Source: a virus (Duplodnaviria; Heunggongvirae; Uroviricota; Caudoviricetes). Taken from it: a stretch of 41,051 nt of DNA. This document shows positions 1 to 36,550 of the stretch, in pieces; position 1 is the stretch's first letter, and each line of letters opens with the position of its first letter. A model generated the notes under the pieces. It searched no databases. It worked only from the letters and a program-made list of their open reading frames with translations, and was not told the origin of the DNA. Both the position numbers and the translations under genes were made by a program. The stretch lies in the IMG/VR virus record IMGVR_UViG_2526164667_000035; one strand, given 5' to 3'.

Positions 1-286
1 TGGGAAGCGTTGCCTGCGCTTTTATCCGGATTTACAGCAGGGAAAGCCTCCAGTGCGCAAGTCAATAAGGTTATTCGGCAGGCCAGCTTTATTGCTGCAG
101 CTCTGGCCCAGTTTGTAAGTGATAAAACGCAACGGGATGTGCTTGATAATGGTGATCTGCCCGGTTTTGTTGAATTGCTGGGATCGGGGTTTGCTGTTGA
201 ATACCTGAGCCGCAAGAATCCGTTTGGCGATATCAAATCGGATGGCACGGTGAAAACGGCTCTCGAAAACCTTGGTTTGGGAGAAG
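1..286. repeat. Right copy of a long inverted repeat; exact reverse complement of 1878..2163 (runs to the window edge, so true length may be greater)
   Basis: Direct comparison: bases 1..286 equal the reverse complement of 2163..1878 with no mismatch; identity ends at 287/1877. Confidence 0.9.
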
Positions 287-354
287 CCAGATATGTCATT
301 CAGCGAGAGCTAATGCCAATGGTGCGTGGATACGCTGGTCAGATGGTGCAATAG
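10..354 (+). CDS. Partial (5' truncated by window edge) duplicate of the tail-fibre N-terminal constant region carried in the inverted repeat, followed by a 22-codon unrelated tail; probably not an independent gene
   Basis: Translation is identical to residues ~32-119 of the 1387..2247 tail fibre up to GLGE, then diverges (ARYVIQ...) and stops after 22 codons. Confidence 0.45.
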
Positions 355-614
355 AAGTCTTTGGAACGGGGGGTTCTAATGATAATGGACTGGCTAAAGT
401 CGTTTATCCAATTGCGCTACCTAAGCTTTCACGTTTTATCAGCATAGCGGAAAGAATAGGAACGGATTATGGGGGCACATCTAATAACGTTCACGTTTCA
501 ATGATCGTGGATGACCAGGTCACTAATACCGGTTTTTATGTCCGCTGCCAGATGTACGACGGAACACCATCAACAAGTGCTTTTTCCTGGAGGGTTTATT
601 GTGCGCCTGTTTAA
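201..614 (+). pseudogene. Cryptic alternative tail-fibre tip domain (Sv-prime-like), open in a frame offset by one base from the constant region; no ATG start
   Basis: Stop-free frame from 201 to TAA at 612-614 encodes ...[34 protein letters not shown]...QMYDGTPSTSAFSWRVYCAPV, a pattern typical of receptor-binding fibre tips; missing from the ORF track because it has no long M-initiated segment. Confidence 0.4.
260..285. other. Candidate 26-bp DNA-invertase crossover site (hix/gix/cix/pix-like), right copy
   Basis: ctctcgaaaacc-tt-ggtttgggagaa: two imperfect inverted 12-bp half-sites around a 2-bp core, resembling Hin/Gin-family sites as I recall them (half-site ending AAAACC). Sits at the inner end of the inverted repeat. 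Confidence 0.6.
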
Positions 615-798
615 TCCTGTTACTTTGACTGAAGTAATCCCCGGTCTTCATGACGTGACCGGGGCTGTTGAATTACCAGAAGATAACTGGTTTTTTACTG
701 CATCTGAAATCCCTGAAGGAATGGAAATATCTGTTAACGAGAAGGGAGAACCCATTCTGATTGAGATTAAACCGTCTCAGGAGGAACTGGCCAGATGA
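601..798 (+). CDS. Small putative alternative tail-fibre chaperone-like protein (U-prime position), 65 aa from a GTG start
   Basis: GGAGGG Shine-Dalgarno about 7 nt upstream of GTG at 601; convergent with the tfa gene and overlapping its 3' end by 32 bp, as at the centre of Mu G / P1 C segments. Short for a Tfa, so function is uncertain. Confidence 0.35.
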   Translation: MRLFNPVTLTEVIPGLHDVTGAVELPEDNWFFTASEIPEGMEISVNEKGEPILIEIKPSQEELAR

Positions 799-1372
799 CA
801 TCTGGCGCGGTGCTGGTATCTGTTGCCATCACCGCGTCAGTGTAATCCAGCACGGCGTTAAGTCGGGTGTTTTCTGCCTGCGTCAGCTTCCGTCCGGCCT
901 GTAATTTCAGTTGAATCAGACTGATGGAAGCCATTGCTGCATCAATCAGTGACTGGCGCTGTGCTTCTGCCGCTTCTACTGCGGCGCTATGCTGTGCCTC
1001 AGTATTCGTCCCCCATTTCTCACCATCCCATTTATCATATGGCGTTAACGGGGCGATAGTGGTTGTATTTTCAGGGTAATCACCCAGAGCTGTGATTTCT
1101 TTCGATTCTCCTGTTTCAGTGCTATAGATGATTTCACCGCGATGGTCTGGCACATATTCCCATGAGTTAAAATCTGCAGAACGGCAGATTGCATAACCAG
1201 CTTTATGTGTAACTGGTGCATCTAAACAAGAACATGCCGGGATGCCGACGCCAACCGCAAGATATTCAGTTGATGTGGAAAGATATTCCCGCGTCTTGCT
1301 GTCGTAGTTGTATATGACGACTTCACCCGCGACAGTCGCCAGTAGGGCCTCATTCAGTGTGACTGTATTCAT
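767..1372 (-). CDS. tfa: Tail fibre assembly protein (lambda Tfa / Mu U family)
   Basis: C-terminus ...DTSTAPDVIWPVPPETV matches the conserved Tfa C-terminal motif; immediately downstream of the tail fibre gene. Start moved to the internal ATG (MNTVTL...) preceded by GAGGA. Confidence 0.8.
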   Translation of the reverse strand: MNTVTLNEALLATVAGEVVIYNYDSKTREYLSTSTEYLAVGVGIPACSCLDAPVTHKAGYAICRSADFNSWEYVPDHRGEIIYSTETGESKEITALGDYPENTTTIAPLTPYDKWDGEKWGTNTEAQHSAAVEAAEAQRQSLIDAAMASISLIQLKLQAGRKLTQAENTRLNAVLDYTDAVMATDTSTAPDVIWPVPPETV

Positions 1373-1386
1373 GGTATCCTCGCGCA

Positions 1387-2247
1387 TTATGCCGCCCTCA
1401 CGATGTAGTTGAATGCAATATTACGAGGTCTGTTTTCTGTCGCTGTAGGAACAACTCTTGAGACATCCAAATTAGCGTAAATATGACGATCTGTCATAGA
1501 AACTGATGACTTACCAGTAGATTCAGCTTTTATCACAACGGAATCATACATTCCCTCATCATTCCCAAAAAATGCACCAGAGCCATTGCCAAAAAAATAC
1601 AGTGCTGATATTTCATGCCTTGCACCAATTGTCCCCGTGATATTTCTGATTGCATCTCCCTGAGAGTTCAATATAGTTCGGCCCGAATCAACCCCACGCC
1701 CGTCATCCCAGCCGCGAATAAATTCACCGCGTAAATCAGGCAATTTATTTGTCGGGTAAGCCTTTGCCAGTTCCGGGTATTCTTCAGCAGAAAAAGCCGC
1801 ACCATTGCATTTCAGCCAGCCTGTTGGCGGAGTGGCTGAAGGCCACGGAACAGGCACCCCAACAGGTAATGCTGAGCCTTCTCCCAAACCAAGGTTTTCG
1901 AGAGCCGTTTTCACCGTGCCATCCGATTTGATATCGCCAAACGGATTCTTGCGGCTCAGGTATTCAACAGCAAACCCCGATCCCAGCAATTCAACAAAAC
2001 CGGGCAGATCACCATTATCAAGCACATCCCGTTGCGTTTTATCACTTACAAACTGGGCCAGAGCTGCAGCAATAAAGCTGGCCTGCCGAATAACCTTATT
2101 GACTTGCGCACTGGAGGCTTTCCCTGCTGTAAATCCGGATAAAAGCGCAGGCAACGCTTCCCATTCCTCCTGCGACATAACATTGGCATTTTTACCCGTT
2201 GCGAATGCTTTAAAGTCATTTTTTGCCATCAGAGTAATACTCCCCAT
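1387..2247 (-). CDS. Tail fibre protein (constant N-terminal part within the inverted repeat, variable C-terminal tip 1387..1877)
   Basis: 286-aa ORF last in the baseplate operon; C-terminal region ([31 protein letters not shown]...) resembles phage tail-collar / fibre tip domains; followed by tfa. Confidence 0.8.
1878..2163. repeat. Left copy of the inverted repeat, inside the 5' part of the tail fibre gene
   Basis: Perfect reverse-complement match to 1..286. Confidence 0.9.
1879..1904. other. Candidate DNA-invertase crossover site, left copy
   Basis: Reverse complement of the 260..285 site, located within the tail fibre coding sequence at the constant/variable junction (after GLGE). Confidence 0.6.
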
Positions 2248-2251
2248 GCCC

Positions 2252-2908
2252 CTACATCAAAACCACTGATGAATTCGTTATCCATATCAAAACCAAAAAT
2301 TTTGAACCTTCCGATGGGGTTTCCACCGAAGGTGTTTCAATGCCACCCGCCCACACCCCGGCGGCTTTTACTGTGAGATATCCCTGTTTAATTGCAGCAA
2401 TTAACTCACGCGATACATCTGAAATATCAGTATCAGGAAAGACCCAGACCGATATCGTCATGTCCTGGTTATCGACTATCTGCATTCGCAGCCTGGATCC
2501 TGCTGTTGCCGCGTCAAGAATTACCGGAAGCGAATCATTCCGTCCGTCCCAGTTATTAATCGCAATCTTCGCTTTAAGAATGACACGATAAGTTTCATCG
2601 CTGAGATACATGTATCCAGAATCAGGATCATATGGCCCCTGCCATACACCCTGATCATATCCAAGCCCGTCGGTATCCCAGCTGAAATAGACACCTGAAA
2701 TAGGCTGGCTGACAACACGGCTACGTCCGATCCACAATCCCAGAATGTCAAGTTGCACACCAACCGCAGAGTCAATATCAAATGCAGTAATCAGCCCTCT
2801 GGTGGCCGCCGCAACATCAATAAGCGGCCGGGTCATCAGATCAACATGTGCAAGAAATTTAGGTTTGGTGGCGTGGTAGTTCGTGATTAGTTCGGTGTAT
2901 TTGCTCAT
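2252..2908 (-). CDS. Baseplate/tail protein, Mu gp48 / YmfQ (DUF2313)-like
   Basis: 218-aa ORF between the baseplate J-like gene and the tail fibre, the position of Mu gp48; tight packing with neighbours. Confidence 0.55.
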
Positions 2909-4104
2909 GACTCCACCGTTATAACGATATTTTCCGGGGTACAGGACGCAGATTCGTTATATCTGATATCAATGTTTGATGATGACAAAGCCCCCGGGGA
3001 TTTCCCAATCGTCAGTTCCTGAATATCGTAATAGCGTGCATTCCCGCCACTCACCACGCCAAGATTCGCCGGTGAGTAAATGCGACTTAAAAGGACCGAA
3101 TCACCAATCATCAGACTATTGATATAGTCGGAAATAGCCTGCTGGATCTGCTGCCCTATCTGTGAGGTATAACCCGTAAAAACTTTTAATTTAATCCGGG
3201 CATAAACAGGCACATCACTGGAACGCGAGAATTTGATTACATGGGGATTGCCGTATTTATCCGGAACCGTAACGGATGTTGTACCGTGAGTGGCTGTCCC
3301 CTGGCCTTTATTTCCTCTGATAGCCTGAGCAATATCCGTTACATCACCGCCATCCACAATTACAGCAACAGAGTGTGGCGGTAACCCGTTACCGTCCTCC
3401 GAACCAGTATCGTTTTCATAGAGTTTGTGGCGGGTTACACCGGTAACATTAGAAACAGCACCATCCAGTGCTTCAAATGGGGTTATTGATGGCAACGCAA
3501 CACTTTGCGACTGGCGGATACGTAACTCAGCGTCAGTTTCTGCCGGAGTGCCCACAGTAGCCGCAGCAGGATTAGTTACCGAAACCCAGCCACGGGTTGG
3601 CGTATTAATTTCAGTGATAGTTCCAGCCAGCGCCGCCACTGCACCTCTGACGGAACATTTTGCGGTCACCATCACTGTACCATCCACGCCGACCACCACT
3701 GAAGCAGGCAAACGCCATATCACATTATTACTGTCTTTCACGCTGCCATTAATGATGGTTGTTCCGGCAGTTCCTGTAAGAAGCAAATCAACCGTAGAAT
3801 TCGTCGCGCCTTTACGTGAAATACCATTTATTTTCACGTTACTGGTCAATGCAGCCCCATAGCCGGTTGCCGGTGAAAAACAGTTGTAGACAGTTATCGC
3901 CATATTATTGGCATCATGAATCGCCAGCGCCATCAGAGCCACCATCTGGCCGTCTTTGCTGTCCGGTTCGAGGTAGGCATCACTGCCATAAATCTGCTGA
4001 AAATAGCTAATCAGGGTGCTGAGTATCGTCTGATAATCAGGCGCACTGATCCCCTCCGCGGTTACCTTTGCAGATAAACCGAGAGAATCAAGGTTCAGAG
4101 CCAT
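2905..4104 (-). CDS. Baseplate J-like protein (Mu gp47 / P2 J family)
   Basis: 399-aa ORF, 4-bp overlap with downstream gene, conserved position upstream of the fibre genes. Confidence 0.7.
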   Translation of the reverse strand: MALNLDSLGLSAKVTAEGISAPDYQTILSTLISYFQQIYGSDAYLEPDSKDGQMVALMALAIHDANNMAITVYNCFSPATGYGAALTSNVKINGISRKGATNSTVDLLLTGTAGTTIINGSVKDSNNVIWRLPASVVVGVDGTVMVTAKCSVRGAVAALAGTITEINTPTRGWVSVTNPAAATVGTPAETDAELRIRQSQSVALPSITPFEALDGAVSNVTGVTRHKLYENDTGSEDGNGLPPHSVAVIVDGGDVTDIAQAIRGNKGQGTATHGTTSVTVPDKYGNPHVIKFSRSSDVPVYARIKLKVFTGYTSQIGQQIQQAISDYINSLMIGDSVLLSRIYSPANLGVVSGGNARYYDIQELTIGKSPGALSSSNIDIRYNESASCTPENIVITVES

Positions 4105-4457
4105 TACGCCTCCGATGTAACAGTCGTTATTCCATAGAGAGTGTCGATTTCAGCGGAAAACATGACACGTCGGGTCGTGGTATCCACCGTCGTATTGAAA
4201 GAGAGGATTGATTTAACGCCCCGCGTTTCGAGGATGCGCTTACGGATCGCCAGGTTGTAGGTTTCCGGCTTCTGCTTACCGAGTACGGACTGGATCCACG
4301 GAGTCCCCTCGGTGGTGTCGAGAAACCATTGCCCATACCACAATTCGAATCGCGTTTTTACCGCCTGCGCCACGGCCTCCGGCGAGTTAATCAGCCAGGT
4401 GTCATCACCGCTGCCAAAGGTGTAATCGCCATCGGCGTCTTCACGTCTGTATCGCAT
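4104..4457 (-). CDS. Baseplate wedge protein (gp25 / GPW-like, Mu gp46 position)
   Basis: 117-aa ORF between spike-like and J-like genes; start overlaps upstream stop (ATGA). Confidence 0.55.
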   Translation of the reverse strand: MRYRREDADGDYTFGSGDDTWLINSPEAVAQAVKTRFELWYGQWFLDTTEGTPWIQSVLGKQKPETYNLAIRKRILETRGVKSILSFNTTVDTTTRRVMFSAEIDTLYGITTVTSEA

Positions 4458-5209
4458 CAGTTTACCCCATCGGTATTGCTTCCACCGCGCTGAACACCGC
4501 CATGAGTGTGCGTATCATCGATTGGCTTGCCGTTAGCCTTCACGCTACCCAAAAACTCAACAGCACCAGTGATTTTTGAAGCCACACCAGAAACAACAGA
4601 CCCCACCATGCCACCCATCCAGGTTAACAGGCCATGAATGGTTACTTTCTCAGAAAAATCAGCCAGGGGGGCAACCACATCAAGCCCCCCCGGAGCGACA
4701 ATTTTAATTTTCCTGGTATCAGGATTAAGCTCAAAATAGGTGCTGCCGTCGTCACTACGCAACTGTGTGGCACTGGTATTAATACCGCTAATCTTCCTAG
4801 CCTGCGACTGGGGACCGACAATACAAAACGCATCCGATAAATCATGCATTCTGTCATCAACAGGCTCCTGTATCCCGCCGCTCTGCCACCAGAAATCAAT
4901 ACAACGATCGGCAAAAACGACAAGACACTCATCCCCGGCTTTTACCGGAAAAGTCAACGTACAGCCTCCGCCGCGCGGGAATACCACTGGCACATCCGCC
5001 AGCAATGGGTAATTTTTGGTAATGCGGTTACCGTAGTTATCCTTTTCAACCGAACGGATAGCTGGCTGCACAACCGCCGTCACCGCGTCAGGAGCGAATG
5101 ACTGAATAATGCCAGGCAAGGCGACGCGGATCTGGTTCTTTGTTGTTTCCCGCTCGGACTTGAATGTTTCGGCAAGGTCACCGCTACGAGTCTGGTCTGA
5201 TATGGCCAT
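4457..5209 (-). CDS. Baseplate spike / assembly protein V-like (Mu gp45 position)
   Basis: Start placed at internal ATG (MAISDQ...) with AGGAG about 7 nt upstream; the longer ORF start would overlap the terminator hairpin. Confidence 0.6.
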   Translation of the reverse strand: MAISDQTRSGDLAETFKSERETTKNQIRVALPGIIQSFAPDAVTAVVQPAIRSVEKDNYGNRITKNYPLLADVPVVFPRGGGCTLTFPVKAGDECLVVFADRCIDFWWQSGGIQEPVDDRMHDLSDAFCIVGPQSQARKISGINTSATQLRSDDGSTYFELNPDTRKIKIVAPGGLDVVAPLADFSEKVTIHGLLTWMGGMVGSVVSGVASKITGAVEFLGSVKANGKPIDDTHTHGGVQRGGSNTDGVN

Positions 5210-5225
5210 TTGATAAACTCCTGAA

Positions 5226-5250
5226 AACAAAAAACCCGCCAAGTGGCGGG
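5226..5250 (-). terminator. Rho-independent terminator closing the AT-rich island
   Basis: On the - strand: CCCGCCACUUGGCGGG hairpin (6-bp GC stem, 4-nt loop) followed by UUUUUUGUUUU. Confidence 0.6.
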
Positions 5251-5271
5251 TCTACAGGAACAACTCTAAGT

Positions 5272-5442
5272 TTATTTTTTCTGTTTAAAATTGTCCAACT
5301 CAGGTTCTTTAACGCTTTCTGTCATGTAATCCAATCCATCAAAAGGTACTTCAAGCATTATACTGCTTTCATAATCAGCCATGGATTGCTCTGCTTGCGT
5401 TGGCTTACTTTGCTGTGAGTTGTCATTATTTGATGTTGTCAT
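5272..5442 (-). CDS. Small acidic hypothetical protein (56 aa), last gene of the AT-rich island
   Basis: ATG..TAA ORF below the ORF-track size cutoff (MTTSNNDNSQQSKPTQAEQSMADYESSIMLEVPFDGLDYMTESVKEPELDNFKQKK); 3 nt downstream of the preceding stop; weak SD. Confidence 0.35.
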   Translation of the reverse strand: MTTSNNDNSQQSKPTQAEQSMADYESSIMLEVPFDGLDYMTESVKEPELDNFKQKK

Positions 5443-5445
5443 CAA

Positions 5446-6001
5446 CTATGCCTTATTTATCAAAAGAAAAGTAACCGATAATATGAAAAAACCGAAAGAT
5501 AACGCAATTCCTTCAAAAAGATAACGAGCATAAACTGCCTTTTCTTTATGAAGACTTTCGATCAATTCAACAGCTTTACCATACTGAAACATATGGTATC
5601 TAAGCGTTTTAATTTTATCACCGTAAAGTAAAAAATCATGCTCTTCTTTTCGCTTATGAGTAGGCATTTTTGGTATATCTTTCAGTCCCCAAGTACGCCA
5701 TAGGAAAAAAAAAGCACATAACAATACAAACAAAGCACAGATATGCACAAAGTATAGATAATGTTAAAAACCAATTACTCTTTAGCCCACTTTTGAAATC
5801 AACAGTCCCAAATACAGCCAGTAGAGCAGAGGTTTCTACAGCTAAAATAGCAAGAAGGTAGTTAACTTTGTCCTCAAGACGACGATATGTTGATTTTGCT
5901 TCCTCATATCTATCTTTATAATATGACGAAATAAAATCAGCGCCTATAGTCTCAATTGCCTTTTGTTCTTCTGTTGTATCTATTGGCGAACGCTTGCTCA
6001 T
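5446..6001 (-). CDS. Hypothetical multi-pass membrane protein, split into two overlapping frames at a T9 homopolymer (frameshifted pseudogene or phase-variable gene)
   Basis: ORFs 5654..6001 and 5446..5748 overlap by 95 nt; both are hydrophobic across the overlap; a run of 9 T (- strand) at 5705..5713 sits at the junction; loss of one T would fuse them into about 184 aa. About 33% GC. Confidence 0.45.
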
Positions 6002-6008
6002 TTCTTAA

Positions 6009-6356
6009 TCAACCAACAACTTTCTTACACGGGAAAGAGCCAATAATTTTCGGAGCATCCATGCTGTTCTGCAACAACTGGACGTTCAGGAAACGCGTTT
6101 TAGTGCCCGGTCGATGGATATACTCGAACCCATAATTGTTGCCATCTTTGGCAGGCATCAGCTCCATTTTGATCTGCATGCCTGTACCGTCTTTACCCAA
6201 CATTTTTACTTTTTGGGACGTTACTGTTTCGCCATTGATTTTAAATAATGAGTCAGGGATCGCATCCATACGAAAGTTGCCGCATTGCATCGTTATGGTG
6301 TTTGCACTTACACCAACAGACACTAACGCCAGCAATGAAAATATCCATCGTTTCAT
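6009..6356 (-). CDS. Secreted/periplasmic hypothetical protein with Sec-type signal peptide (115 aa)
   Basis: Start at internal ATG (MKRWIFSLLALVSVGVSA-NT...) with GGAGAGG upstream; classic n-h-c signal peptide with AxA-like cleavage site; two Cys in mature part; lower GC than flanking tail genes. Confidence 0.55.
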   Translation of the reverse strand: MKRWIFSLLALVSVGVSANTITMQCGNFRMDAIPDSLFKINGETVTSQKVKMLGKDGTGMQIKMELMPAKDGNNYGFEYIHRPGTKTRFLNVQLLQNSMDAPKIIGSFPCKKVVG

Positions 6357-6358
6357 TT

Positions 6359-7423
6359 CTATAATCCTCTCCGCAAAGCAGTGCTGGATGGCATATCCTG
6401 CGCACCGCGCGCTTCGCACATCATATCCATGTACCACGCCTGGCCCCTTGTGTCGCCAGTGTACATAATCCCGCGCACAATATAAACGCCATCCGTTGCG
6501 ATGCTGGCAGGCTGCGCGGTGGTACCGCTGAGCGTGATATTTCCGTCCGTGTTCTGGTCGGTGATCTGCCCGCCGGCCATCGCGATATCGTTGTTCGACA
6601 GCGCGGTGCGGAATACTGAAGCCTGATCCAGCTGAATGAGCCCGTTAACCCGGATGTTCGGGTTAATCAGCGCGCGGACGTTTACGCCGTTGCCGATAGT
6701 CTGCTGTGGCATACCGATAAGCCCCGTGGCACTGTTGAGCACAATCGCGTCGTGAACATATTCGTTATTCGCTACCATCTGGCGCTGACCATCCACAAAC
6801 TGCCATGTTGCGCCACATTGTCCGGCCACGTTATCCATAAGATGACGTGTCATGCCGAATAGCACCTGGCCCCGGGGGAAAACGGTAGCAGGCATTTCAG
6901 GCGTCAGACCTTCAGTCGCGCCTTTGGCCTCGAAGTCTTTCATCAGCGCGCGATTCACGTCTGCGACCGTATAACCGGCCGCCAGCGTCTGCGAAGTTAT
7001 GCTGGTGGCAAAAGCCAGATCAGTATCTGCTGCCTGAATCAGGACGTAGGAATCAACCGGACTGTCTTTTCCTGTGACCGAGTAGCGAATTTCACCGCTG
7101 AAAATTAGTCCGTAGTTGCGGCCATCACTCTGGCCCACGTCCGCCGCGTCAACTTCCCGCACAGTCCCGACGTCGCTTGCCGACACCTCCGGCGCGATAC
7201 CGTCGTAACCCGCAATCAGACGCACTTTCGAAAATTCCTGCCCGGTGATTCGGTTCACAGTATCTGCCGAGAGGTTATAAATTTTGATAGTCCCTACCCG
7301 GGACGCACTGCTGATGTTGAACCAGTCGATCGTAAAGGTGACTTTAAAATCACTTAGCTCAATTCCCTGACCGTTCCCGTCCACAAGCTGCAGCTCGAAA
7401 TGTCTCATCCAGTTCTGTGACAT
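6359..7423 (-). CDS. Baseplate hub-like protein (Mu gp44 / P2 D-like position)
   Basis: 354-aa ORF downstream of tape measure and two small tail genes; assignment by size and synteny only. Confidence 0.5.
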   Translation of the reverse strand: MSQNWMRHFELQLVDGNGQGIELSDFKVTFTIDWFNISSASRVGTIKIYNLSADTVNRITGQEFSKVRLIAGYDGIAPEVSASDVGTVREVDAADVGQSDGRNYGLIFSGEIRYSVTGKDSPVDSYVLIQAADTDLAFATSITSQTLAAGYTVADVNRALMKDFEAKGATEGLTPEMPATVFPRGQVLFGMTRHLMDNVAGQCGATWQFVDGQRQMVANNEYVHDAIVLNSATGLIGMPQQTIGNGVNVRALINPNIRVNGLIQLDQASVFRTALSNNDIAMAGGQITDQNTDGNITLSGTTAQPASIATDGVYIVRGIMYTGDTRGQAWYMDMMCEARGAQDMPSSTALRRGL

Positions 7424-7425
7424 GC

Positions 7426-7728
7426 TTACTCCGTTGATACCAGTAAATGGCTGCGACTGCCCAGGTCAGTTTTCGTGGGATAATCCTGTGTGTTGTCATC
7501 GCAGACCACCAACAGCTTAAAACCAAGCCCCATACAGGCGTACTGCGCCAGCAGATCAGCGCCAGTGACGAGAGGAATACCGGAGATTACTGGCTCCCCT
7601 CTGTCATTCTGCAGGTCCATAATCCAGTACAGATCGCGCCATATGATGCTAATCCGCCAGGTGACACCGCCCAGGACGATGCTGAACTGCTGGTTGTCCG
7701 CTGTCAGCGGAATTTCCTGAATTGTCAT
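7426..7728 (-). CDS. Hypothetical tail protein
   Basis: 100-aa ORF tightly packed in the tail operon. Confidence 0.4.
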   Translation of the reverse strand: MTIQEIPLTADNQQFSIVLGGVTWRISIIWRDLYWIMDLQNDRGEPVISGIPLVTGADLLAQYACMGLGFKLLVVCDDNTQDYPTKTDLGSRSHLLVSTE

Positions 7729-8315
7729 TAGCCGCCTCCCAGTAATGACGCCACGTTACCCGTAATGCTTTTCAGCAGTGAAGTATCTGGAGGCTTTGTG
7801 GTTTTGTTGCCGCTATTCTGTACCGCCGACGTGCTGGCCCCTTCCTTCATGTTGGTTTTATCCGCGACGGTAATCTGCTGTGTCCGGGAGATAAGGACCT
7901 CCCTCAGGGTAAGGACGGCGGACAGGACATTTTCGGTTGTCTTGTCCGTCGTCACTTCCAGCGCCCGGATCAACATGTTGCTGTACAGCCGTTTACCGGT
8001 TACCACATCGAAGGGGATACGGCTTTCCTGCAGATCCAGTAGCTCCTGATACGTCTGCTGAGGACTCAGGCCGAGCAGGCTGGTAGCCGTCAGGTTACTG
8101 GCAAAATCCAGCAATGTGCCGCCACCGGCGAAACCAACCTCCATCACCACTTCTGACGGTTTTTTATAGGCATGATCAGCGACAGCAGCCCCGACCTCTA
8201 CCGGATGCTCGGTTATTTCAAGCATATCTGTATGCTTCTCTGAAATAACAACACTGGGAACAATCATTCCTATTTTTCTGCTCTGCTGATGAAAAAGTGT
8301 AGAGAGAATATCCAC
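7728..8315 (-). CDS. Hypothetical tail protein (position of Mu DNA-circulation / P2 U-like protein)
   Basis: 195-aa ORF immediately after tape measure; start overlaps upstream stop. Confidence 0.4.
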   Translation of the reverse strand: MDILSTLFHQQSRKIGMIVPSVVISEKHTDMLEITEHPVEVGAAVADHAYKKPSEVVMEVGFAGGGTLLDFASNLTATSLLGLSPQQTYQELLDLQESRIPFDVVTGKRLYSNMLIRALEVTTDKTTENVLSAVLTLREVLISRTQQITVADKTNMKEGASTSAVQNSGNKTTKPPDTSLLKSITGNVASLLGGG

Positions 8316-10303
8316 TAACCCACCCTCACCTGATTACTTCGCATGACCTGAGCATTTGCAGACTGTTGCCGACGTGCAATCTCATTACCGACAGCGTGCG
8401 GATCTCCGCCACCGTAAATGTGGTAGGTATTTTGCTGGTTAACCTCTGTCATTTTGCCACTAATTCCCGCCACGGCAGCCTTATTAATCAGCTCTCGAGA
8501 ATAGATATTTCTTCCATTTTCATGCTGGATAATGCTGCTCATCAATGCTGACATGGTTTTCGGATCGCTCATATTCAGGGCAGCCCGGGGATCCACTCCC
8601 AGTCGTTGCGATACAGCCCTGATATACGCAGTTGTGTTGTTATTATCAGAGGCAGGTGCCCAGGTAGAGATAATTTTTTCCACACTGTTTATTCCTCGCC
8701 CGGCGTACAACATTAACTGACGAGCAAGAGCCCGTAATCCATCAAAGGCAGTTTCAAATCTGGCAAATCGCCCGCCCGGGTGTTCAAGAGAAGCCCCCGC
8801 CTGACCAGCAAAATTAAGGTTTCCCGGATTGTTATTCCGCTCTCCTCGTTTCGTAGCCTGTGCATGTTGTTCCGGCTCATCATCACCAAACCAGCCGCGT
8901 ACCGTCCGGCCCACACTGCGGGGATCGAATCCCCAGTGCTCTTTAATCCAGTCGGCAGTACTGTTAGCGCTGTCTGTAACCATCGGCATCGCTGACGGAT
9001 TTTCGCTGCCCTGATTAAGTATCTGTTTGCCGATGCTGACGGCATCAGCCCAGCGTCCATCTTTGATAGCATTGAGCAGGTCGGCGATCATGTTCAGCAT
9101 TTTGCTGAATTCGCCCATCTGGTCGATGAAGTTGCTGAAATCCCACTTCAGGGACCATGATTTGGGGTCAATATTGAGTAGTTTCGCCAGCGCTTTCGCC
9201 AGATCGTTAACGGTCGTTTTAAGGTCACGAACCATCTTCAGCGCGGCATCGACCTCCGGTTTCCACTTGCCCCAGTCAATCAGGCTGTCGCCGCCTTCCT
9301 TCCAGGTCTGATAGTCCTCCCACAGGAGGGCAATCCCCGCCGCCAGCGCGGTAATGAGGCCAACCGGCGACATCCAGAACGTACTGTTCAGAATGCGCAG
9401 CGCAATCGTCAGTGCGCCAAACAGCGAGATCAACTCCCGCGTTTGCTTATCCAGCGATTGCCACCAGGTGATAAGGCCTGATGTCCCCTCAATCAGTCTG
9501 AAGAACAGCCGCCCGATAATATCCCCGAGCGCCAGAATGCCTTTTATGGCTTTCGTCAGGGTCTGCTCGATACGAGGGAAGTTGTCCAGGATATGGCGGC
9601 GCAGGGTGTCCAGCGAACCTGCAAGCCCACCCGCAAGATTAGAGCCGATTTTGTCACGGGCCATGCCTGCCATCGCGCTAAACTCACGCAAGGAGGTCAT
9701 AAATTTGTTGGAGCTTCTGGCCGCCTCGTCAGCATTGAAGCCGATAGCTTTCGCCATTGCGCTGTACTGCCCGGAGAAGCCACCCACACCCCGGCGCATC
9801 GCCATAAGGGTATTTTCGTCAATGCCCAGCATCTGCGCATACTGGTTAGCCCGGTAATACGGCATGCCGCTGAGCTTCTGGCCTACACCTGTAAAAATAG
9901 CGGCCATGTCACGCATGTTACCGCTGGCATCCCGTGTCTGTACCCCCAGGCGATTCAGAAATCCCTCTGCACCGGGATTATTACGAATAAACCGGGAGAG
10001 GCTTTCCAGAGAAGATCGCGCAGCGTCCACGCTGCCGCCAACCTGCGAAACCGCATAGCCAATAGACTGAATTCCCTGGACTGTCGCTCCAGTGCGCTGT
10101 GACGCCCAGTAAAGATTATCCAGACCGGAGGCGATCTTAGCCGTGAAGGCCACCACGGACAGCGCGGCTCCTTCAACGGCCAGCCCCATTTTGATGACAT
10201 TTGCAGTTGTACCGGCGAGGACAGAACCGAACTTTTTCGCTCCTGCATCATCCACACTGAAGCCAAGCGAGACGAGGAAATCTTTAATAGTTTCAGCGTT
10301 CAT
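8315..10303 (-). CDS. Tail tape measure protein
   Basis: 662 aa, largest tail gene, Ala/Gly-rich with predicted helical stretches, downstream of the chaperone. Start set at ATG (MNAETIK...) preceded by GGAGAGAGGA; the ORF-track start is an upstream TTG. Confidence 0.8.
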   Translation of the reverse strand: MNAETIKDFLVSLGFSVDDAGAKKFGSVLAGTTANVIKMGLAVEGAALSVVAFTAKIASGLDNLYWASQRTGATVQGIQSIGYAVSQVGGSVDAARSSLESLSRFIRNNPGAEGFLNRLGVQTRDASGNMRDMAAIFTGVGQKLSGMPYYRANQYAQMLGIDENTLMAMRRGVGGFSGQYSAMAKAIGFNADEAARSSNKFMTSLREFSAMAGMARDKIGSNLAGGLAGSLDTLRRHILDNFPRIEQTLTKAIKGILALGDIIGRLFFRLIEGTSGLITWWQSLDKQTRELISLFGALTIALRILNSTFWMSPVGLITALAAGIALLWEDYQTWKEGGDSLIDWGKWKPEVDAALKMVRDLKTTVNDLAKALAKLLNIDPKSWSLKWDFSNFIDQMGEFSKMLNMIADLLNAIKDGRWADAVSIGKQILNQGSENPSAMPMVTDSANSTADWIKEHWGFDPRSVGRTVRGWFGDDEPEQHAQATKRGERNNNPGNLNFAGQAGASLEHPGGRFARFETAFDGLRALARQLMLYAGRGINSVEKIISTWAPASDNNNTTAYIRAVSQRLGVDPRAALNMSDPKTMSALMSSIIQHENGRNIYSRELINKAAVAGISGKMTEVNQQNTYHIYGGGDPHAVGNEIARRQQSANAQVMRSNQVRVG

Positions 10304-28344: not shown

Positions 28345-28494
28345 ATGAAACCTGAACACATCCATCGACTGACGGGGCGCGATGTTCTCCGTTATCGCCG
28401 TAAAAACTTCGATTTGATGACCGGTCTGGCCGTTGCCACTGCGCTCGGTCTGATCATCACTTTCATTCTCCTTGTAGCGAGGCCCACAGTATGA
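28345..28494 (+). CDS. Small single-pass membrane protein (49 aa)
   Basis: Internal ATG with AAAGGA SD; C-terminal hydrophobic helix (LAVATALGLIITFILLVA); stop overlaps the next start. Confidence 0.35.
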   Translation: MKPEHIHRLTGRDVLRYRRKNFDLMTGLAVATALGLIITFILLVARPTV

Positions 28495-29393
28495 GTTTAG
28501 AAACCAATCTAGAACTTAATAATCAACTTCTGGCACAACATAATGCGCTGCTTGAACGTCTTATCCGCACAATGGCATCAGGCATTGTTATGCATCCTGA
28601 CACGATTTCACGAGTGCAGGAATGTCGGGATACAGCAACTGAAACTGAAAATATGTCAGCGGCAATGACACTGGATGATCTGGAGTTCAGCGACGTTATC
28701 GCACTGGCTGGTTTCTACCCGGTAGCCACCCCTATCACAGAAGACATGCTGCAACGTGCTGTTGCCTACCGTGATGCTGAAGGCGATAAACGAGTAGTTC
28801 AGATTGATGCTCTCGACAGCGCATTGCAGGGCGTCAAACGAGCCAGGGCGCTGCTTAAACCTGCTCTCCTGGACCTGTCCCGTAACATCCTTAAGTTCTG
28901 GGACGACCTGCCAACCATCGGCGAGCGACGTGCTTTTGCCGAGCAGCTACTTGATGCACCTGCGGATGGGCGTGATGAAGTTAAGCCGAAAAAGGCCAGT
29001 AACAAGGATGGAGAACGCACGGGGCCGTTTTACGTCAAAAATGTATCCGGCACAGCAGCCAGTGAACTCCACACCTTACGCAAGTTGAACGAGATGCTGA
29101 AAAAAGGCCATATCGAGATCAACCGTGTTGAGTACCTTCAGCTGCAGGAAGAATTTGCACGCAGAGACGCAGCAAATTCCAGCCAGAATAATGACGCCAA
29201 AGATGACCATACAATTGATTTCGCGGCACTACGCAAACAAGCTGAAGGGTTGATCCTCCAGTTAGCAAAAGGGGGTTACCGGGCAGAAGCTATTGCAATT
29301 CTGGAAAAACAGGGAGCCAGGAAACTTGGTGAAGTAACGGATGAAAATCTCGCTGAAGTAATCACCCTGGCTGAAAAAGCACTGGAGGGTTAA
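28491..29393 (+). CDS. Hypothetical protein (300 aa)
   Basis: ATGA start overlap with the upstream gene; no motif recognised; mixed charged / helical composition. Confidence 0.5.
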
Positions 29394-29395
29394 TC

Positions 29396-30697
29396 ATGCC
29401 AGACGTTCATGCACAACTTTCTCCATCATCAGCGCATCGATGGATGCTCTGCCCAGGAAGTCTGGCGCTGGAGGCCACACAACCGGATAAAGAAACAACT
29501 TTTGCAATCGAGGGCACTGCAGCGCACGCGCTTGCTGAAAAAGTTCTACGAAACAGGCAAAGCCACCCGGAACACTACGCCGGATGCAATGTTTCTATGT
29601 TTCTCGGCTCATACCCCCTTCGCGAAAATCCTGATGATACATCTGGCCCACAGGTGGATGATGAAATGGTCGAAGCCGTTGGCCGGTATGTTGATACGGT
29701 CTGGACTCTTGCACAGAATAATGAACTATTGGTTGAACAACGTGTTGATTTCTCACATATAACGGGTGTGGAAGAATCTTTCGGAACTGCCGACGGCATA
29801 ATCATCGCTGGTAACGAATTACAAATCCACGACCTGAAATATGGCAAAGGCGTCCGCATTGATGCAGAACAAAATGAGCAACTACAACTGTATGCTCTGG
29901 GTGCGCTTGAACAATTCAGCATGCTGTATGACTTTGAAACTGTAAGATTATTTATTCACCAACCAAGGCTCAACCACGTTTCAGAATGGTCGTTAACCGT
30001 ACAGGAACTTCAGTCTTTCGGTGAACGGGCGCTGGAGGCCGCAACCAGTGCGATCCTTGTTCTCAATATTGCTGAATGCGAAGGCATTGAGACACTACCG
30101 CTGGAAAACTTCATACCTGGAGAAAAACAGTGCCGCTTCTGTAAAGCAAAAGCTATTTGCACTGCCCAGAAAATGCAGCATTTACAAACAGCGGCCAGCG
30201 ATTTTGAAGATCTGACAAAGCCTGTCAGCGAAATAATCACCAATGCCAGCGCACGTGTACCTCTGTTAACCATTGAGCAGCTTGCAGAGATCTATAGCCA
30301 GGCCAACTTTATTGAATCCTGGCTAAAGGCAGTACGGGACCGGGTTCACAATGAACTCAATGCCGGACATCCGGTACCGGGGTTTAAACTGGTAACAGGA
30401 AAACAAGGTAACCGGGCCTGGAGTGACGAAGAGGCAGCTCGCGCACTTCTGAAGGACCAGTTCAGGTACAAAACTGAAGAAGTATTCGACTTTAAACTTA
30501 TTAGTCCCACAAAAGCCGAAAAACTTATCAAAAAGGCCAGTCCGCGCCGTTGGTCAAAAGTCGAGGCACTGATAACACGAGCTGATGGTAAACCCACCGT
30601 CGTTCCCGAGTCAGACCCACGCCCCGCACTCAATATCAACCCTGTAAATGATTTCGACGACGTATCCGACGATACGCTAACCGCAGACCTTATCTGA
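29396..30697 (+). CDS. PD-(D/E)XK-type nuclease, DUF2800-like (Cas4/RecB-like with C-terminal Cys cluster)
   Basis: N-terminal [15 protein letters not shown] and Cys cluster [10 protein letters not shown], matching DUF2800 hallmarks as I recall them. Confidence 0.6.
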
Positions 30698-30712
30698 TTT
30701 AAGGAAATCCCC

Positions 30713-31261
30713 ATGAAACTGAAGCTGAACAATGTTCGTCTGGCCTTCCCGTCTCTGTTTGAAGCTAAAACTGTAAACGGCGAAGGCGATCCGCGTTTCT
30801 CCGCAGTATTTTTAATGTCTCCCAAACACCCACAACTGGAAGAAATCCGTAAAGCTATGAAGCAGGTAGCGAAGGAAAAATGGGGGGAGAAGTGGGAGTC
30901 CATTTATAACCAGCTGGAGAAAAAACTCAATCTGTGCCTGCATGATGGTGATGAAAAAGCAGAGTATGAAGGCTTTCCCGGCAATTTCTTCCTGAACGCT
31001 GCTAACAAAGCGCGCCCAGCTGTTCTTGATCGCGATCGTTCGCCACTAATTCAGGCTGATGGACGTCCCTATGCAGGGTGCTATGTAAACGCCGTTATCG
31101 ATATCTGGGCACAGGACAATAATTTCGGTAAACGCATTAATGCCTCACTCGGCGGAGTCCAGTTCCTGCGAGACGGCGATGCATTCGCTGGCGGCGGAGT
31201 GGCAAGCGCTGACGATTTCGACGATATCAGCGAAGGTGCTGATGCTGAAGCACTAATTTAA
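30713..31261 (+). CDS. DUF2815-like protein (phage single-strand DNA-binding-like)
   Basis: N-terminus MKLKLNNVRLAFPSLFE resembles DUF2815; sits between DUF2800 and the DNA polymerase as in known phage replication modules. Confidence 0.55.
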   Translation: MKLKLNNVRLAFPSLFEAKTVNGEGDPRFSAVFLMSPKHPQLEEIRKAMKQVAKEKWGEKWESIYNQLEKKLNLCLHDGDEKAEYEGFPGNFFLNAANKARPAVLDRDRSPLIQADGRPYAGCYVNAVIDIWAQDNNFGKRINASLGGVQFLRDGDAFAGGGVASADDFDDISEGADAEALI

Positions 31262-31312
31262 AAATATTCATCCCCCAGCTACGTGCTGGGGTATCTCATG
31301 AGGGAAAGGATA

Positions 31313-31954
31313 ATGTCACAGCCCGTATTAACTAATCACCTTAAAACTCAAATCATCAATAACGCACTTGAGAAAGCGGGTATCCCCAAACGTAAATCAG
31401 CACTACGAGCTGCTCGTGTTGAATGGGCCGAACGTGTTCGGCTTGCAGCTATCGGGGGCGTAGAGAAAGACGCTGAAATATTAAAAAATATAAAAAAGAT
31501 TGAATCCATGGTAACAAAAATCCCTGATTCATTAAAAACCAATAGTTCTTTAATTCGAAAAGATTGCTGCATATATCTCAATCTGGCTGGAGCCAGAGCA
31601 AACATTTATTTCAATGGCAACTACAGAGGTTATGAATCAGGAGCCCCCGAGCATATTAATAAAATAGCACCTGCAGAATTTACTCTACTTGGCGAAGATC
31701 CTCTGGTAACGGAGTTTTATAGCTTTGATGCTCTCTACACACAAATTAAAAGTGATGAAACCGAAATCATACAGAACGTCAGCGCGGCTCTAAATAAAGT
31801 TCGGACAGTAAAACGATTACTGGATGTATGGCCCGAAGCTAAAGAACTGCTTCCAACAGACGCACCGCCAGTCCCTTTAGCACCAGCAGTACATCGAGAG
31901 ACATTAAATGAAATGATAGGCCTTCCTACCAATACAGTGTCTGATACTCAATAA
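31313..31954 (+). CDS. Hypothetical protein, AT-rich (213 aa)
   Basis: Start at ATG with GAAAGGA SD; markedly lower GC than flanking genes; no motif recognised. Confidence 0.5.
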   Translation: MSQPVLTNHLKTQIINNALEKAGIPKRKSALRAARVEWAERVRLAAIGGVEKDAEILKNIKKIESMVTKIPDSLKTNSSLIRKDCCIYLNLAGARANIYFNGNYRGYESGAPEHINKIAPAEFTLLGEDPLVTEFYSFDALYTQIKSDETEIIQNVSAALNKVRTVKRLLDVWPEAKELLPTDAPPVPLAPAVHRETLNEMIGLPTNTVSDTQ

Positions 31955-32637
31955 CAAGGGGGATGCTTATTATATGATTTTGAACGTTTTACAATCTCGT
32001 TAAGAGGCGTGAAATCAAAATCTCTGAATAACACATCAGGATACTTCGCTCTTGCTTTATCCAGCAGGCCAGTTAAAGTATTTTTTGTGTTACCCAACAT
32101 TGTATTAACCGCCACTACATGTCTAATTTCTGGAGGTTTATCTATACCACCAGAAATTGCTTCATTAAGAACCGACGCCAGTGGGGTTTGTCCCTTACTT
32201 GTTGAATCCCACAGCGTCATTAACAGACGAGCTGCGTCTATAAATAGCTTTTTGTCAGCATTTGGCTTGACAGTAATACCGGAACTACCAGAGCCAGAAC
32301 CGGAACGTTCTATTGCTGCACTGGTATCCGATTTCATAGGATTAAATAACGGCAGCTCTGTACAACCGATACGCCGAATGAAATCCTTTGCAACATCTCT
32401 ACCACAGAAAAAAGCCCCTGTACAATTTTCATCAGAGCGTTTTTTAAATGAAAAACAATAGTACTGATCGGTTAACGGATAACCGGAATAACTGGTTTTA
32501 GTTTGTCCAGTAATAAGTTTCAGGTGTGCAACAGGCTGAATAATAAAATCCCGAACTATCGCATCTTTTATGTCGTTACCACGGTGACAATAATATTCAG
32601 GTAATCCATTAGGCTGTCTCTTATTACCCACAGTCAT
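31948..32637 (-). CDS. Hypothetical Cys-rich two-domain protein on the opposite strand, AT-rich (229 aa)
   Basis: Strong AAGGAGG SD; N-terminal region with Cys/His positions (CH...C...C...C...C), SGSGSGSSG linker, then a C-terminal domain; 7-bp convergent overlap with 31313..31954. Confidence 0.55.
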   Translation of the reverse strand: MTVGNKRQPNGLPEYYCHRGNDIKDAIVRDFIIQPVAHLKLITGQTKTSYSGYPLTDQYYCFSFKKRSDENCTGAFFCGRDVAKDFIRRIGCTELPLFNPMKSDTSAAIERSGSGSGSSGITVKPNADKKLFIDAARLLMTLWDSTSKGQTPLASVLNEAISGGIDKPPEIRHVVAVNTMLGNTKNTLTGLLDKARAKYPDVLFRDFDFTPLNEIVKRSKSYNKHPPCY

Positions 32638-32698
32638 TAGTTGCCTCCTTTAATTCATGATATCTAGCATTTAACCATATACCATATGAGGATATTTT

Positions 32699-34762
32699 AT
32701 GTCCAATATACTATGGGGCGACCTGGAAACCTATTGTGACATTCCGATCAACAACGGTACCCATGCGTATGCCGAAGGCGTTGAAGTGATGCTTTTCGCA
32801 TGGGCTATCAACGACGGGCCAGTAAATGTGTGGGATATCACTGCCGGTGGTGGTATTCCACACGGCTTATACGAAGCAATCGCAGACCCTGAAACCCTGC
32901 TTTATTTCCATAACTCTCACTTCGACCGCACCGTTCTGCGTTATGCAATGCCGCGACTGGCACCGCCAGTCGAACGTTGGCGCGACACGATGGTGCAGGC
33001 GCTGGCGCACGGTCTCCCGGGGTCTCTGGGGGAACTCTGCGAAATACTAGGCGTCCCGCAAGACAAAGCGAAGGACAAAGAAGGTAAAGCGCTGATCCAG
33101 CTGTTCTGTAAGCCACGCCCGAAAAACAGCAAACTGCGTCGGGCCACCAGTAAAACCCACCCGGAAGAATGGCGGCGCTTTGTTGATTACGCCGGACTGG
33201 ATATCGAGGCAATGCGCGAAGTCTATAAACGTCTGCCGAAGTGGAATTATCAGGGGACAGAGCTGGCGCTCTGGCATCGTGATCAGCAGATCAACGACCG
33301 GGGCGCCTGCATGGACATGCAACTCGCGCGCGCTGCGATCGAAGCGGTAGACCAGGAGCAAAAGCGCTTGGCAAAGCGTACACAGGAAATGACTGATGGC
33401 GAAGTGCAGGCAGCCACACAACGGGACGCGTTGATTAAGCACATCGTTGAATCCTACGGTGTGGAGCTACCAGACATGCAACGCAGTACCCTGGAACGTC
33501 GTATAGCCGACCCCGATTTACCATCTGCCGTGAAAGAACTGCTGGCTATCCGCCTGCAAGCCAGTACTACCAGCACCAGTAAATACAAGGCACTGATGAA
33601 AGGCGTAAGCCACGACGGGCGCTTACGCGGTACGCTACAGTTCTGCGGGGCGTCACGTACCGGTCGTTGGGCCGGACGGCTATTCCAGCCCCAGAACCTT
33701 CCCCGCCCTTCACTAAAACAGGAACAAATAGACGAAGGCATCGAAGCACTGAAAGCCGGATGTGCAGACCTGCTGTTTGACAATATCATGGAACTAACCA
33801 GTTCAGCGTTACGTGGCTGCATTATCGCGCCAACAGGCAAAAAACTGGTGGTAAGTGACTTGTCAAACATTGAAGGCCGTATGCTGGCATGGCTGGCGGG
33901 AGAAGAATGGAAACTGAATGCATTCAGAGAGTACGACGCCGGAACGGGTCCGGACTTATATAAACTGGCGTATGCAAAAGCTTTCGATATTGCACCAGAT
34001 GATGTTGATAAACACATGCGTCAGATCGGTAAAGTCATGGAACTCGGTCTGGGTTATGGAGGTGGTGTATCGGCTTTCATCACTTTTGCTCTGGTTTACG
34101 GTCTCGATCTCGACGAGCTGGCGAACGCCGCGCTGCCAAACATTCCCCGCGATGTTATCCGCGAGGCGAAAAGCTGGTACGACGAATCGGTTAAACGTAA
34201 GTCGACCTTTGGCCTGTCCGAGCGTGTATTCATCGCATGTGACTCGCTCAAGCGCCTGTGGCGCAGGGCGCACCCGGCGACCTGCGATTTCTGGTACGAG
34301 CTGGAGCGCACTGTCCGCACAGCAATCGCCACACCGCAAAAAACATTGTATTGCGGTTATCTTAAAATCCGCCGCGATGGCGCGTGGCTGCGCATACAGC
34401 TACCATCCGGACGCGCTGTATGCTACCCGTCTCCGGTTATCGAACAAGGGAATATCACCTACATGGGTGTTAACTCTTATTCGCGTAAATGGCAACGACT
34501 CAAAACCTACGGCGGAAAGCTGGTGGAGAACGTCACCCAGGCGGCCGCCCGCGACGTTCTGGCCGGAAACATGCCGCTTATCGAAGATGCCGGTTACAGC
34601 ATTGTGCTGACGGTACACGACGAGGTGATCACCGAATCACCTGACACAGAAGATTTCAACGATAAAGCGCTTTCCGCGCTTCTCTCCACTAACCCCGAAT
34701 GGGCGCCCGATATCCCACTGAACGCTGGCGGTTTTGAGGCGTACCACTACCGTAAGGATTAA
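32699..34762 (+). CDS. Family A DNA polymerase with N-terminal 3'-5' exonuclease domain
   Basis: 687 aa; exonuclease-type motifs ([15 protein letters not shown]) and polymerase motifs ([16 protein letters not shown]; VHDEV). Confidence 0.85.
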
Positions 34763-34767
34763 CTCCT

Positions 34768-34983
34768 ATGTCATTTAAATACCGGGATAATCCACTTTAT
34801 TACAGGGCTGCAAGGGAGGCTTTGCGACTTGAACAATCCGGCGAATATGACCGGGCAGCGAAGGTCTGGGCAAAAGCCAACCGCGAATCACATCACGAAC
34901 TGAATCAGGAATGGAGTGAACGCAGATCTGATTTTTGCCTGATGCAGAATATGCGTGAAAAGCGTAAGGCGGTCGAAGAATGA
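34768..34983 (+). CDS. Small hypothetical protein (possibly ANR-like small regulator)
   Basis: 71 aa; vague resemblance to small prophage regulators by memory only. Confidence 0.35.
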   Translation: MSFKYRDNPLYYRAAREALRLEQSGEYDRAAKVWAKANRESHHELNQEWSERRSDFCLMQNMREKRKAVEE

Positions 34984-35279
34984 TCGTTTACGTTGCCGGG
35001 CCGATGAGCGGTTACGAGCAATTTAACCGCCCGGCCTTTCATTCCGCAGCAAAGAGGCTAACGGACAAGGGATATGTTGTGCTTAACCCCGCAACTTTAC
35101 CCGATGGTTTGACACAGGCTCAGTACATGGACATCTGCCTCGCAATGCTTCGCTGTGCCGATACGATTTATATGCTCAAAGAGTGGGAGTACTCTGCCGG
35201 CGCACGTGCAGAAAACGCGTTGGCAGAGAAACTGGAATTGAATGTGCTTTTTGAAGAGTGGGATTCAGATGGCCTATGA
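34980..35279 (+). CDS. DUF4406-like protein (nucleoside 2-deoxyribosyltransferase-like fold)
   Basis: 99 aa; N-terminal MIVYVAGPMSG...VLNPA pattern typical of DUF4406 as I recall it. Confidence 0.5.
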   Translation: MIVYVAGPMSGYEQFNRPAFHSAAKRLTDKGYVVLNPATLPDGLTQAQYMDICLAMLRCADTIYMLKEWEYSAGARAENALAEKLELNVLFEEWDSDGL

Positions 35280-35562
35280 ACGTGAGAGCCTTATCGAAAA
35301 GCACCTCGTCGCTGAAGTGAAAAAGGCTGGCGGTGTGGCCTTTAAGTTCGTATCTCCCGGTCGCCGCTCGGTACCGGATCGCATTGTTCTGCTACCCGGC
35401 GGCCGTCTTGTTTTCGTTGAATGCAAAGCACCCGGCAAAGCACCACGCGCCGACCAGTTGCGCGAGCACGAGCGGCTGCGCGAGCTGGGCTTTACCGTGG
35501 TGGTGCTGGATAGCAAAAATCTGGAGGGGATATTGTGCGGGGAGCCTATTACAACGAAATAG
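35269..35562 (+). CDS. VRR-NUC domain nuclease
   Basis: 97 aa from the internal ATG; PDRIVLLPGGRLVFVECKAPGK motif; typically paired with an SNF2-like helicase in phage genomes. Confidence 0.6.
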   Translation: MAYERESLIEKHLVAEVKKAGGVAFKFVSPGRRSVPDRIVLLPGGRLVFVECKAPGKAPRADQLREHERLRELGFTVVVLDSKNLEGILCGEPITTK

Positions 35563-36548: not shown

Positions 36549-36550
36549 TA

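Follow-up and report, generated by a model that had tools for sequence, protein, structure and literature searches.

The DNA analysed, referred to below as the window, is a stretch of 41,051 nucleotides filed as virus record IMGVR_UViG_2526164667_000035. Its right end is E. coli chromosome (yfhL), preceded by genes for a tyrosine integrase and for phage replication, and the window is therefore a prophage whose tail-fibre end is found at the left. The same prophage occupies the interval between yfhL and yfhH in complete genomes, and its end carries the genes for a DUF2612 wedge protein, the fibre and Tfa, a convergent small open reading frame, an alternative fibre tip and a serine recombinase gene. 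The fibre gene of the window (2247..1387, minus strand) encodes 286 amino acids including a Collar domain; NCBI gene calls begin at the ATG at 2229 and yield a protein of 280 residues. Exact-product look-ups with the 286-aa fibre and the 206-aa tfa product returned no match, since the start codons chosen in public gene calls lie further downstream, while the 280-aa version of the fibre was matched. The constant 5′ part of the fibre gene (Sc) is located outside a segment that harbours two alternative promoterless tips (Sv and Sv′) and their assembly genes on opposite strands, as is typical of the Hin/Gin/Cin/Pin family. All coordinates are collected in Table 1.

Table 1 Features at the left, tail-fibre end of the window
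Feature	Position	Strand	Remarks
Second Sc copy, reverse complement	1..259	+	Sc aa ~39-114, at contig end; 100% complementary to 1905-2163
Left crossover site	260..285	-	Outer half 260-271, core TT 272-273, inner half 274-285
Alternative fibre tip Sv′	274..614	+	Promoterless, starts at left site; would be read only if fused to Sc by inversion
65-aa ORF	601..798	+	Follows Sv′ and occupies the place of a tail-fibre assembly gene; convergent with tfa, 3′ ends overlap
Tail-fibre assembly gene tfa	767..1387	-	Serves tip Sv; Pfam Caudo_TAP, E = 4.9e-30
Variable fibre tip Sv	1387..1890	-	aa ~120-286, with a phage tail Collar domain; joined to Sc in the present orientation
Right crossover site, fibre-proximal	1879..1904	+	Inner half 1879-1890, core AA 1891-1892, outer half 1893-1904
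Constant N-terminal fibre part Sc	1893..2247	-	aa 1 to ~119; outside the segment; transcribed with upstream baseplate genes
DUF2612/Phage_Wedge1 baseplate gene	2252..2908	-	Directly upstream of fibre gene

A module spanning 789-1903 is common to HK97, P2-like and Klebsiella phages and stops at the right crossover site. On the other arm of the segment, Sv′ of relatives exhibits weak gp53-like similarity at the C-terminus (Pfam Gp53-like_C, E = 0.008, under the curated cut-off). In L003 and L004, two of the related loci, Sc and Sv′ form an intact fusion protein of 226 aa. Compared with all relatives, Sv′ of the window is broken by a 1-nt deletion at ~306, and the frame stops at 354. If real, this frameshift may leave the switch half-dead in this strain, the flipped state then resulting in a truncated fibre. 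The wedge gene likewise bears a strain-specific 1-nt deletion, at ~2294. No Pfam family was matched by the product of the 65-aa ORF. This exact product occurs in 4,195 blocks of the collection and lay within this cassette in every locus that was read.

The first-pass annotation had described a perfect inverted repeat of 286 bases within the fibre gene, and this is exact: the arms at 1-286 and 1878-2163 comprise 286 nt each and are 100% reverse complementary. This length is a lower bound, as the left arm is cut by the edge of the window and has no natural end. At the inner ends of the arms sit two inverted sites, i.e., the only two copies in the window of the 26-mer TTCTCCCAAACC-AA-GGTTTTCGAGAG. 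The sites themselves had been recognized before, but the left one had been placed one base off, at 261-286 instead of 260-285, because the repeat extends one base past the site. The half-sites, 12 bp each, flank a 2-bp AA/TT core and agree at 9 of 12 positions; inverted 26-bp sites with such imperfect halves are a feature of the family. Against the family half-site consensus both copies score 17 out of 18, and the runner-up among the 26-mers of the whole 41 kb reaches 13. Shuffled sequences did not contain a single match to the 26-mer even when up to three mismatches were allowed. Judged by their sequence, the two 26-bp elements are genuine crossover sites of the Hin/Gin/Cin/Pin type. They delimit an invertible segment of 1,619 bp, measured from core to core, and the right site coincides with codons 115-123 of the fibre gene (ALENLGLGE). 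Note that the left site carries the fibre-proximal outer half where the invertase-proximal one is expected.

A tblastn search with PinE detected no serine recombinase in the window (best E = 0.59), because the contig ends first. The suggestion that the invertase might be encoded beyond the left edge is supported by near-clonal assemblies: in assemblies encoding an identical fibre protein, a small serine recombinase gene is adjacent to the segment. In the near-clonal assembly L020 this gene starts 27 bp past the segment, is intact and specifies a protein of 184 aa with Resolvase (E = 1.5e-51) and HTH_7 domains, the closest solved structure being that of Gin (3uj3, E = 1.7e-93). The invertases of related loci in strains DX6 and EC20017429 share 96-97% identity with PinE of e14. 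Where intact, the gene is annotated as pinE; some strains, such as the relatives 97-3250 and 8D, have only a truncated copy. In this family, the Fis-dependent recombinational enhancer resides in the 5′ part of the invertase gene. Invertase activity is predicted for the strain under study.

Support for inversion comes from a comparison of genomes. Sites were extracted from 15 resolved loci (L001-L005 and L009-L018), each of which possesses one fibre-type and one invertase-type outer half-site, and across these loci the common inner half plus AA is joined to either type of outer half. The invertase-proximal site TTCTCCCAAACCAACGTTTATGAAAA, which was not found in the window, is present in L001-L005, L010, L013 and L017, and close variants occur in the remaining loci. 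The inner flanks, tctggc on the Sv′ side and a/tgagcc on the Sv side, trade partners between orientations, and they do so exactly at the core. Some prophages that are otherwise similar differ by this swap alone, e.g., L009 and L012 or L001 and L003. Orientation A, which is also that of the near-clonal assemblies L020 and L021, is found in L001, L002, L005, L012, L017 and L018, and orientation B in L003, L004, L009-L011 and L013-L016. Among 5,426 complete E. coli genomes, the Sc-Sv junction was encountered in 572 and the Sc-Sv′ junction in 11. Positions 1-620 of the window are contiguous at ~99% identity in six complete genomes, which have one Sc each and represent the other orientation. Both orientations, with the exchange at the core, therefore exist between genomes. 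For e14, clonal E. coli cultures have been found to contain both orientations, detectable by whole-genome sequencing and PCR (PMC4272514). Taken together, the e14-identical sites, the near-clonal invertase and the occurrence of both orientations support the reading as an invertible tail-fibre segment of Hin/Gin type with the layout of e14 P, as had been proposed in the first-pass annotation.

The long inverted repeats, which had been regarded as part of this element, did not withstand scrutiny. Positions 1-8908 of the window are identical (0 mismatches) to the draft WGS contig AIGN01000051.1 (GCA_000249955.2) from its very first base, and the extra Sc copy therefore constitutes the terminal ~260 bases of a contig. 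The window joins the left junction of orientation B to the right junction of orientation A. Unlike any of the 15 resolved loci, it has a fibre-type outer half and adjoining Sc sequence at either end of the segment. Among the resolved relatives, the natural repeat never extends beyond the site itself (~15 perfect bases), and each has a single constant fibre part. The identical 280-aa fibre is encoded in further assemblies, 24 contigs of which were read. Two of these, L020 and L021, match positions 267-8229 of the window at 99.9% and continue to the left of the core dinucleotide into intact pin and yfhH; the near-clonal assemblies contain a single copy, on contigs of 284-287 kb. The complete arrangement of positions 1-3000 was found in none of the 5,426 complete E. 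coli genomes. The proviso that the repeat might be an assembly duplication thus fits well, as the extra Sc replaces the invertase flank exactly at the core.

A second assembly leads to the same place. A Logan k-mer contig from SRR094968, which is either the assembly's own run or that of a near-identical strain, shows 0 substitutions relative to positions 1878-8910 of the window. On the upstream side it extends over 12 kb with no interruption, and at its other end it stops at 1878, the last base that the Sc-Sv and Sc-Sv′ junctions have in common. A de Bruijn graph branches at 1878 if one Sc joins both tips in the reads. Together, the two assemblies suggest that both orientations were present in the sequenced DNA. 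The ~260 repeat bases outside the left site are most likely a contig-end chimera of the two orientations and not a part of the element. We infer that the segment existed in both orientations in the culture from which the DNA was sequenced, and that the assembler would have proceeded out of the prophage, via Sc and Sv, until it reached the other end of the segment. At this point it would have followed reads from flipped molecules (Sv′-site-Sc) instead of those leading from Sv′ and the site into pin, and would then have stopped. The artefact is no argument against inversion, because this kind of error is just what a mixture of orientations in the sequenced DNA would be expected to cause.

Three other explanations for the terminal repeat have to be weighed. 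One is that two near-identical copies of the prophage, or of its fibre region, lie in opposite orientations and were collapsed during assembly, so that the left arm is the Sc of the second copy. Multiple cassettes are indeed common, with a median of two places and up to 11 per E. coli genome; strain FDN-9 carries the cassette in two different prophages (L014 and L015), and a collapsed repeat would also yield a graph branch at 1878. Other prophage families, however, share just the last ~79 nt of Sc (matches start from 208), whereas 260 nt of the arm beyond the site match with 100% identity. Any second copy would therefore need to belong to the same prophage, and an origin of the left arm from another prophage family was rejected, the constant parts of e14 and Mu type having just these ~79 nt in common with it. 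The uninterrupted Logan contig and the single copy on the large contigs of the near-clonal assemblies also speak against a second copy, and we consider this explanation improbable. Very improbable, in our judgement, is a physically real long repeat, in which an inverted Sc duplicate replaces the invertase flank and forms either two convergent fibre genes or a structure resembling the C segment of P1. This is what the deposited sequence shows, and the invertible fibre regions of P1 and p15B do contain long inverted repeats. Here, however, the sites occupy the inner and not, as in P1-type elements, the outer repeat ends, and there is no further site. The arrangement is absent from the complete genomes and from the near-clonal assemblies, the repeat touches a contig end, and its breakpoint falls exactly on the crossover core. 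Intramolecular inversion cannot make such an arrangement; in the serine-recombinase mechanism, two identical sites cannot be joined in antiparallel alignment when the core is asymmetric, as AA/TT is. Were the repeat real, both tips would be permanently fused to the constant part, a rearrangement not expected from normal Pin chemistry.

The remaining explanation holds that the cassette is a frozen relic which no longer inverts in this strain and that the terminal repeat stems from an unrelated misassembly or chimeric read. The frameshift in Sv′ and the truncated recombinase genes of the relatives 97-3250 and 8D would be in keeping with loss of function. A random chimera, however, would not break at the core and recreate the authentic Sc-Sv′ junction of other genomes; moreover, the near-clonal assemblies retain the intact invertase, and Pin paralogues act in trans on such sites (PMC12529663). 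We therefore attach very little probability to a relic. In summary, we hold it to be highly likely that the locus is an e14/Pin-type invertible tail-fibre cassette of a myovirus-like E. coli prophage and that its long repeat is a contig-end chimera.

The way in which the switch would operate can be outlined by analogy with the invertase family, from which the individual steps are taken. A serine invertase of the Hin/Gin/Cin/Pin type, encoded ~27 bp beyond the segment in near-clonal genomes, would pair the two inverted 26-bp sites and cut at the 2-bp AA/TT core, upon which rotation of the subunits would flip the 1,619-bp segment. In one orientation, Sc would be fused in frame to Sv, followed by tfa, and in the other to Sv′, followed by the 65-aa ORF. 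The promoterless tips would be read via Sc from the upstream late operon. Each flip would thereby switch the fibre tip and hence presumably the receptor that is recognized.

What these findings add is mainly of a methodological nature. System, sites and cassette are already known and very common in E. coli prophages; among the 15 resolved loci, the same cassette is carried by prophages of P2-like, Mu-like and DUF2612 type. Fibre switches of the Pin type that use precisely these sites belong to textbook knowledge, and little is added to the biology. Where a long perfect inverted repeat reaches a contig end and terminates at a recombinase crossover site, it should be taken to indicate a population with mixed orientations and not to belong to the element. 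Such chimeric contig ends, like breaks of the k-mer graph at the last common base, can flag actively inverting segments in draft genomes. In addition, the fibre of this prophage is marked as phase-variable, which matters for host-range prediction. There is a possible bearing on prophage-encoded blocking of phage adsorption, a topic raised by recent work on e14 (PMC12529663).

All features of the Hin/Gin/Cin/Pin systems, as represented by the e14 P segment, that were tested were found, save for an invertase gene in this contig. The C segment of P1 with its invertase Cin and the Min system of p15B also have an invertible tip region with long inverted repeats, and the 286-bp repeat resembles them superficially. 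In P1 C and p15B, the long repeats lie inside the segment and the crossover sites at the outer ends of these repeats. Here, in contrast, the crossover sites occupy the inner repeat ends, the additional Sc lies outside the segment, and resolved relatives are devoid of a long repeat. A P1-like long-repeat element was rejected, there being two sites only, both at the inner ends, and none at or beyond 2163. The G segment of Mu is closer. Its invertase Gin belongs to the same serine invertase family and is, as stated above, the closest solved structure to the near-clonal enzyme, the logic of Sc, Sv and U versus Sv′ and U′ is the same, and the same cassette even occurs in Mu-like prophages (L010 and L014). 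Differences from Mu concern the sequence of the sites, the tips and the phage backbone.

The most extensive similarity exists with the P segment and PinE of e14 in E. coli K-12 (Plasterk and van de Putte 1985, as cited in PMC4272514). The two systems are not the same in every respect. The segment comprises 1,619 bp here and 1,797 bp in e14, and Sc differs save for its last ~79 nt. The second arm encodes a different tip, weakly gp53-like, and only the 65-aa ORF in place of TfaP of e14. The prophage described here is apparently complete and myovirus-like, with yfhL/yfhH at its borders and a DUF2612 wedge protein, while e14 is a defective lambdoid element at icd. On the other hand, the order of wedge gene, Sc plus Sv, tfa, convergent tfa′ plus Sv′ and pin is shared, and tfa and Sv of the window exhibit ~90-92% DNA identity to tfaE and stfE (~92% for tfa over the aligned part). 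The agreement extends to the sites. The inverted repeat of e14 has been published as CCTTCTCCCAAACCAA (PMC12529663), and the inner half of the left site plus the core correspond to this sequence minus its outermost C. In K-12, the e14 site adjoining the constant fibre part reads TTCTCCCAAACCAAGGTTTTCGAGAG and the one adjoining pinE reads TTCTCCCAAACCAACGTTTATGAAAA. The fibre-proximal 26-bp site of the window is identical to its e14 counterpart (K-12 L019:3779-3804), and the same is true for the invertase-proximal site in relatives.

In strains 97-3250 and 8D, only the first 89 codons are left of the recombinase gene adjoining the invertible tail-fibre cassette. The prophages of these two strains are closely related, yet their segments lie in opposite orientations despite the truncated genes, which suggests either that another Pin paralogue inverted the segment in trans or that truncation occurred later than the flip. 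In the Hin/Gin/Cin/Pin family, the enhancer normally resides in the 5' part of the invertase gene. One Mu-like prophage carries the cassette followed by a GmrSD-type restriction gene in place of the invertase gene.

Coordinates of the features described (window positions unless a relative locus, L001, L003 or L010, is named)
Feature	Location	Content
tfa+Sv module (fibre tip with tfa)	789-1903	
Small differences, mostly 1-base indels, from near-clonal assemblies or the Logan contig	~306, ~2294, 5275, 5702-5705	
Low-GC slot	5001-6500	GC 38.6% (~52% in surroundings); flanked by spike and baseplate genes
Replication/modification block	28491-37480	DUF2800, DUF2815, Nmad5 (nucleotide-modification associated), family-A-like DNA polymerase
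Further genes in block	28491-37480	VRR-NUC, DNA cytosine methyltransferase, DEAD-box helicase
Truncated recombinase gene, 97-3250	L001:3673-3939	
Truncated recombinase gene, 8D	L003:6951-7217	
Cassette and restriction gene, Mu-like prophage	L010:6270-8463	

Compared with near-clonal assemblies, the window lacks a G at ~306, which frameshifts the alternative tip Sv', and an A at ~2294, which leaves the DUF2612 protein 218 aa long instead of 226 aa. The latter deletion is probably real because it is common to the window and the Logan contig, an independent assembly of run SRR094968. Relative to the window, the same contig shows a 1-base deletion at 5275 and altered bases at 5702-5705, and a single 184-aa ORF there corresponds to separate 115-aa and 73-aa genes in the window's contig. 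Given these differences, some of the draft indels may be sequencing errors.

Within the tail operon, the low-GC slot appears to be a site of variable cargo ('moron'), because relatives have other genes, e.g., DUF4282, at the same position. Its small ORFs of 100, 115 and 142 aa gave no Pfam match. The same is true of two ORFs of 229 and 309 aa that lie unannotated on the reverse strand in the replication/modification block, the gene set of which hints at DNA modification.

The tfa+Sv module shares 86-94% DNA identity with HK97, HK106, P2-like and Klebsiella phages. As this similarity reaches no further than the crossover site's outer edge, the site also serves as a module boundary in the horizontal exchange of fibre tips.
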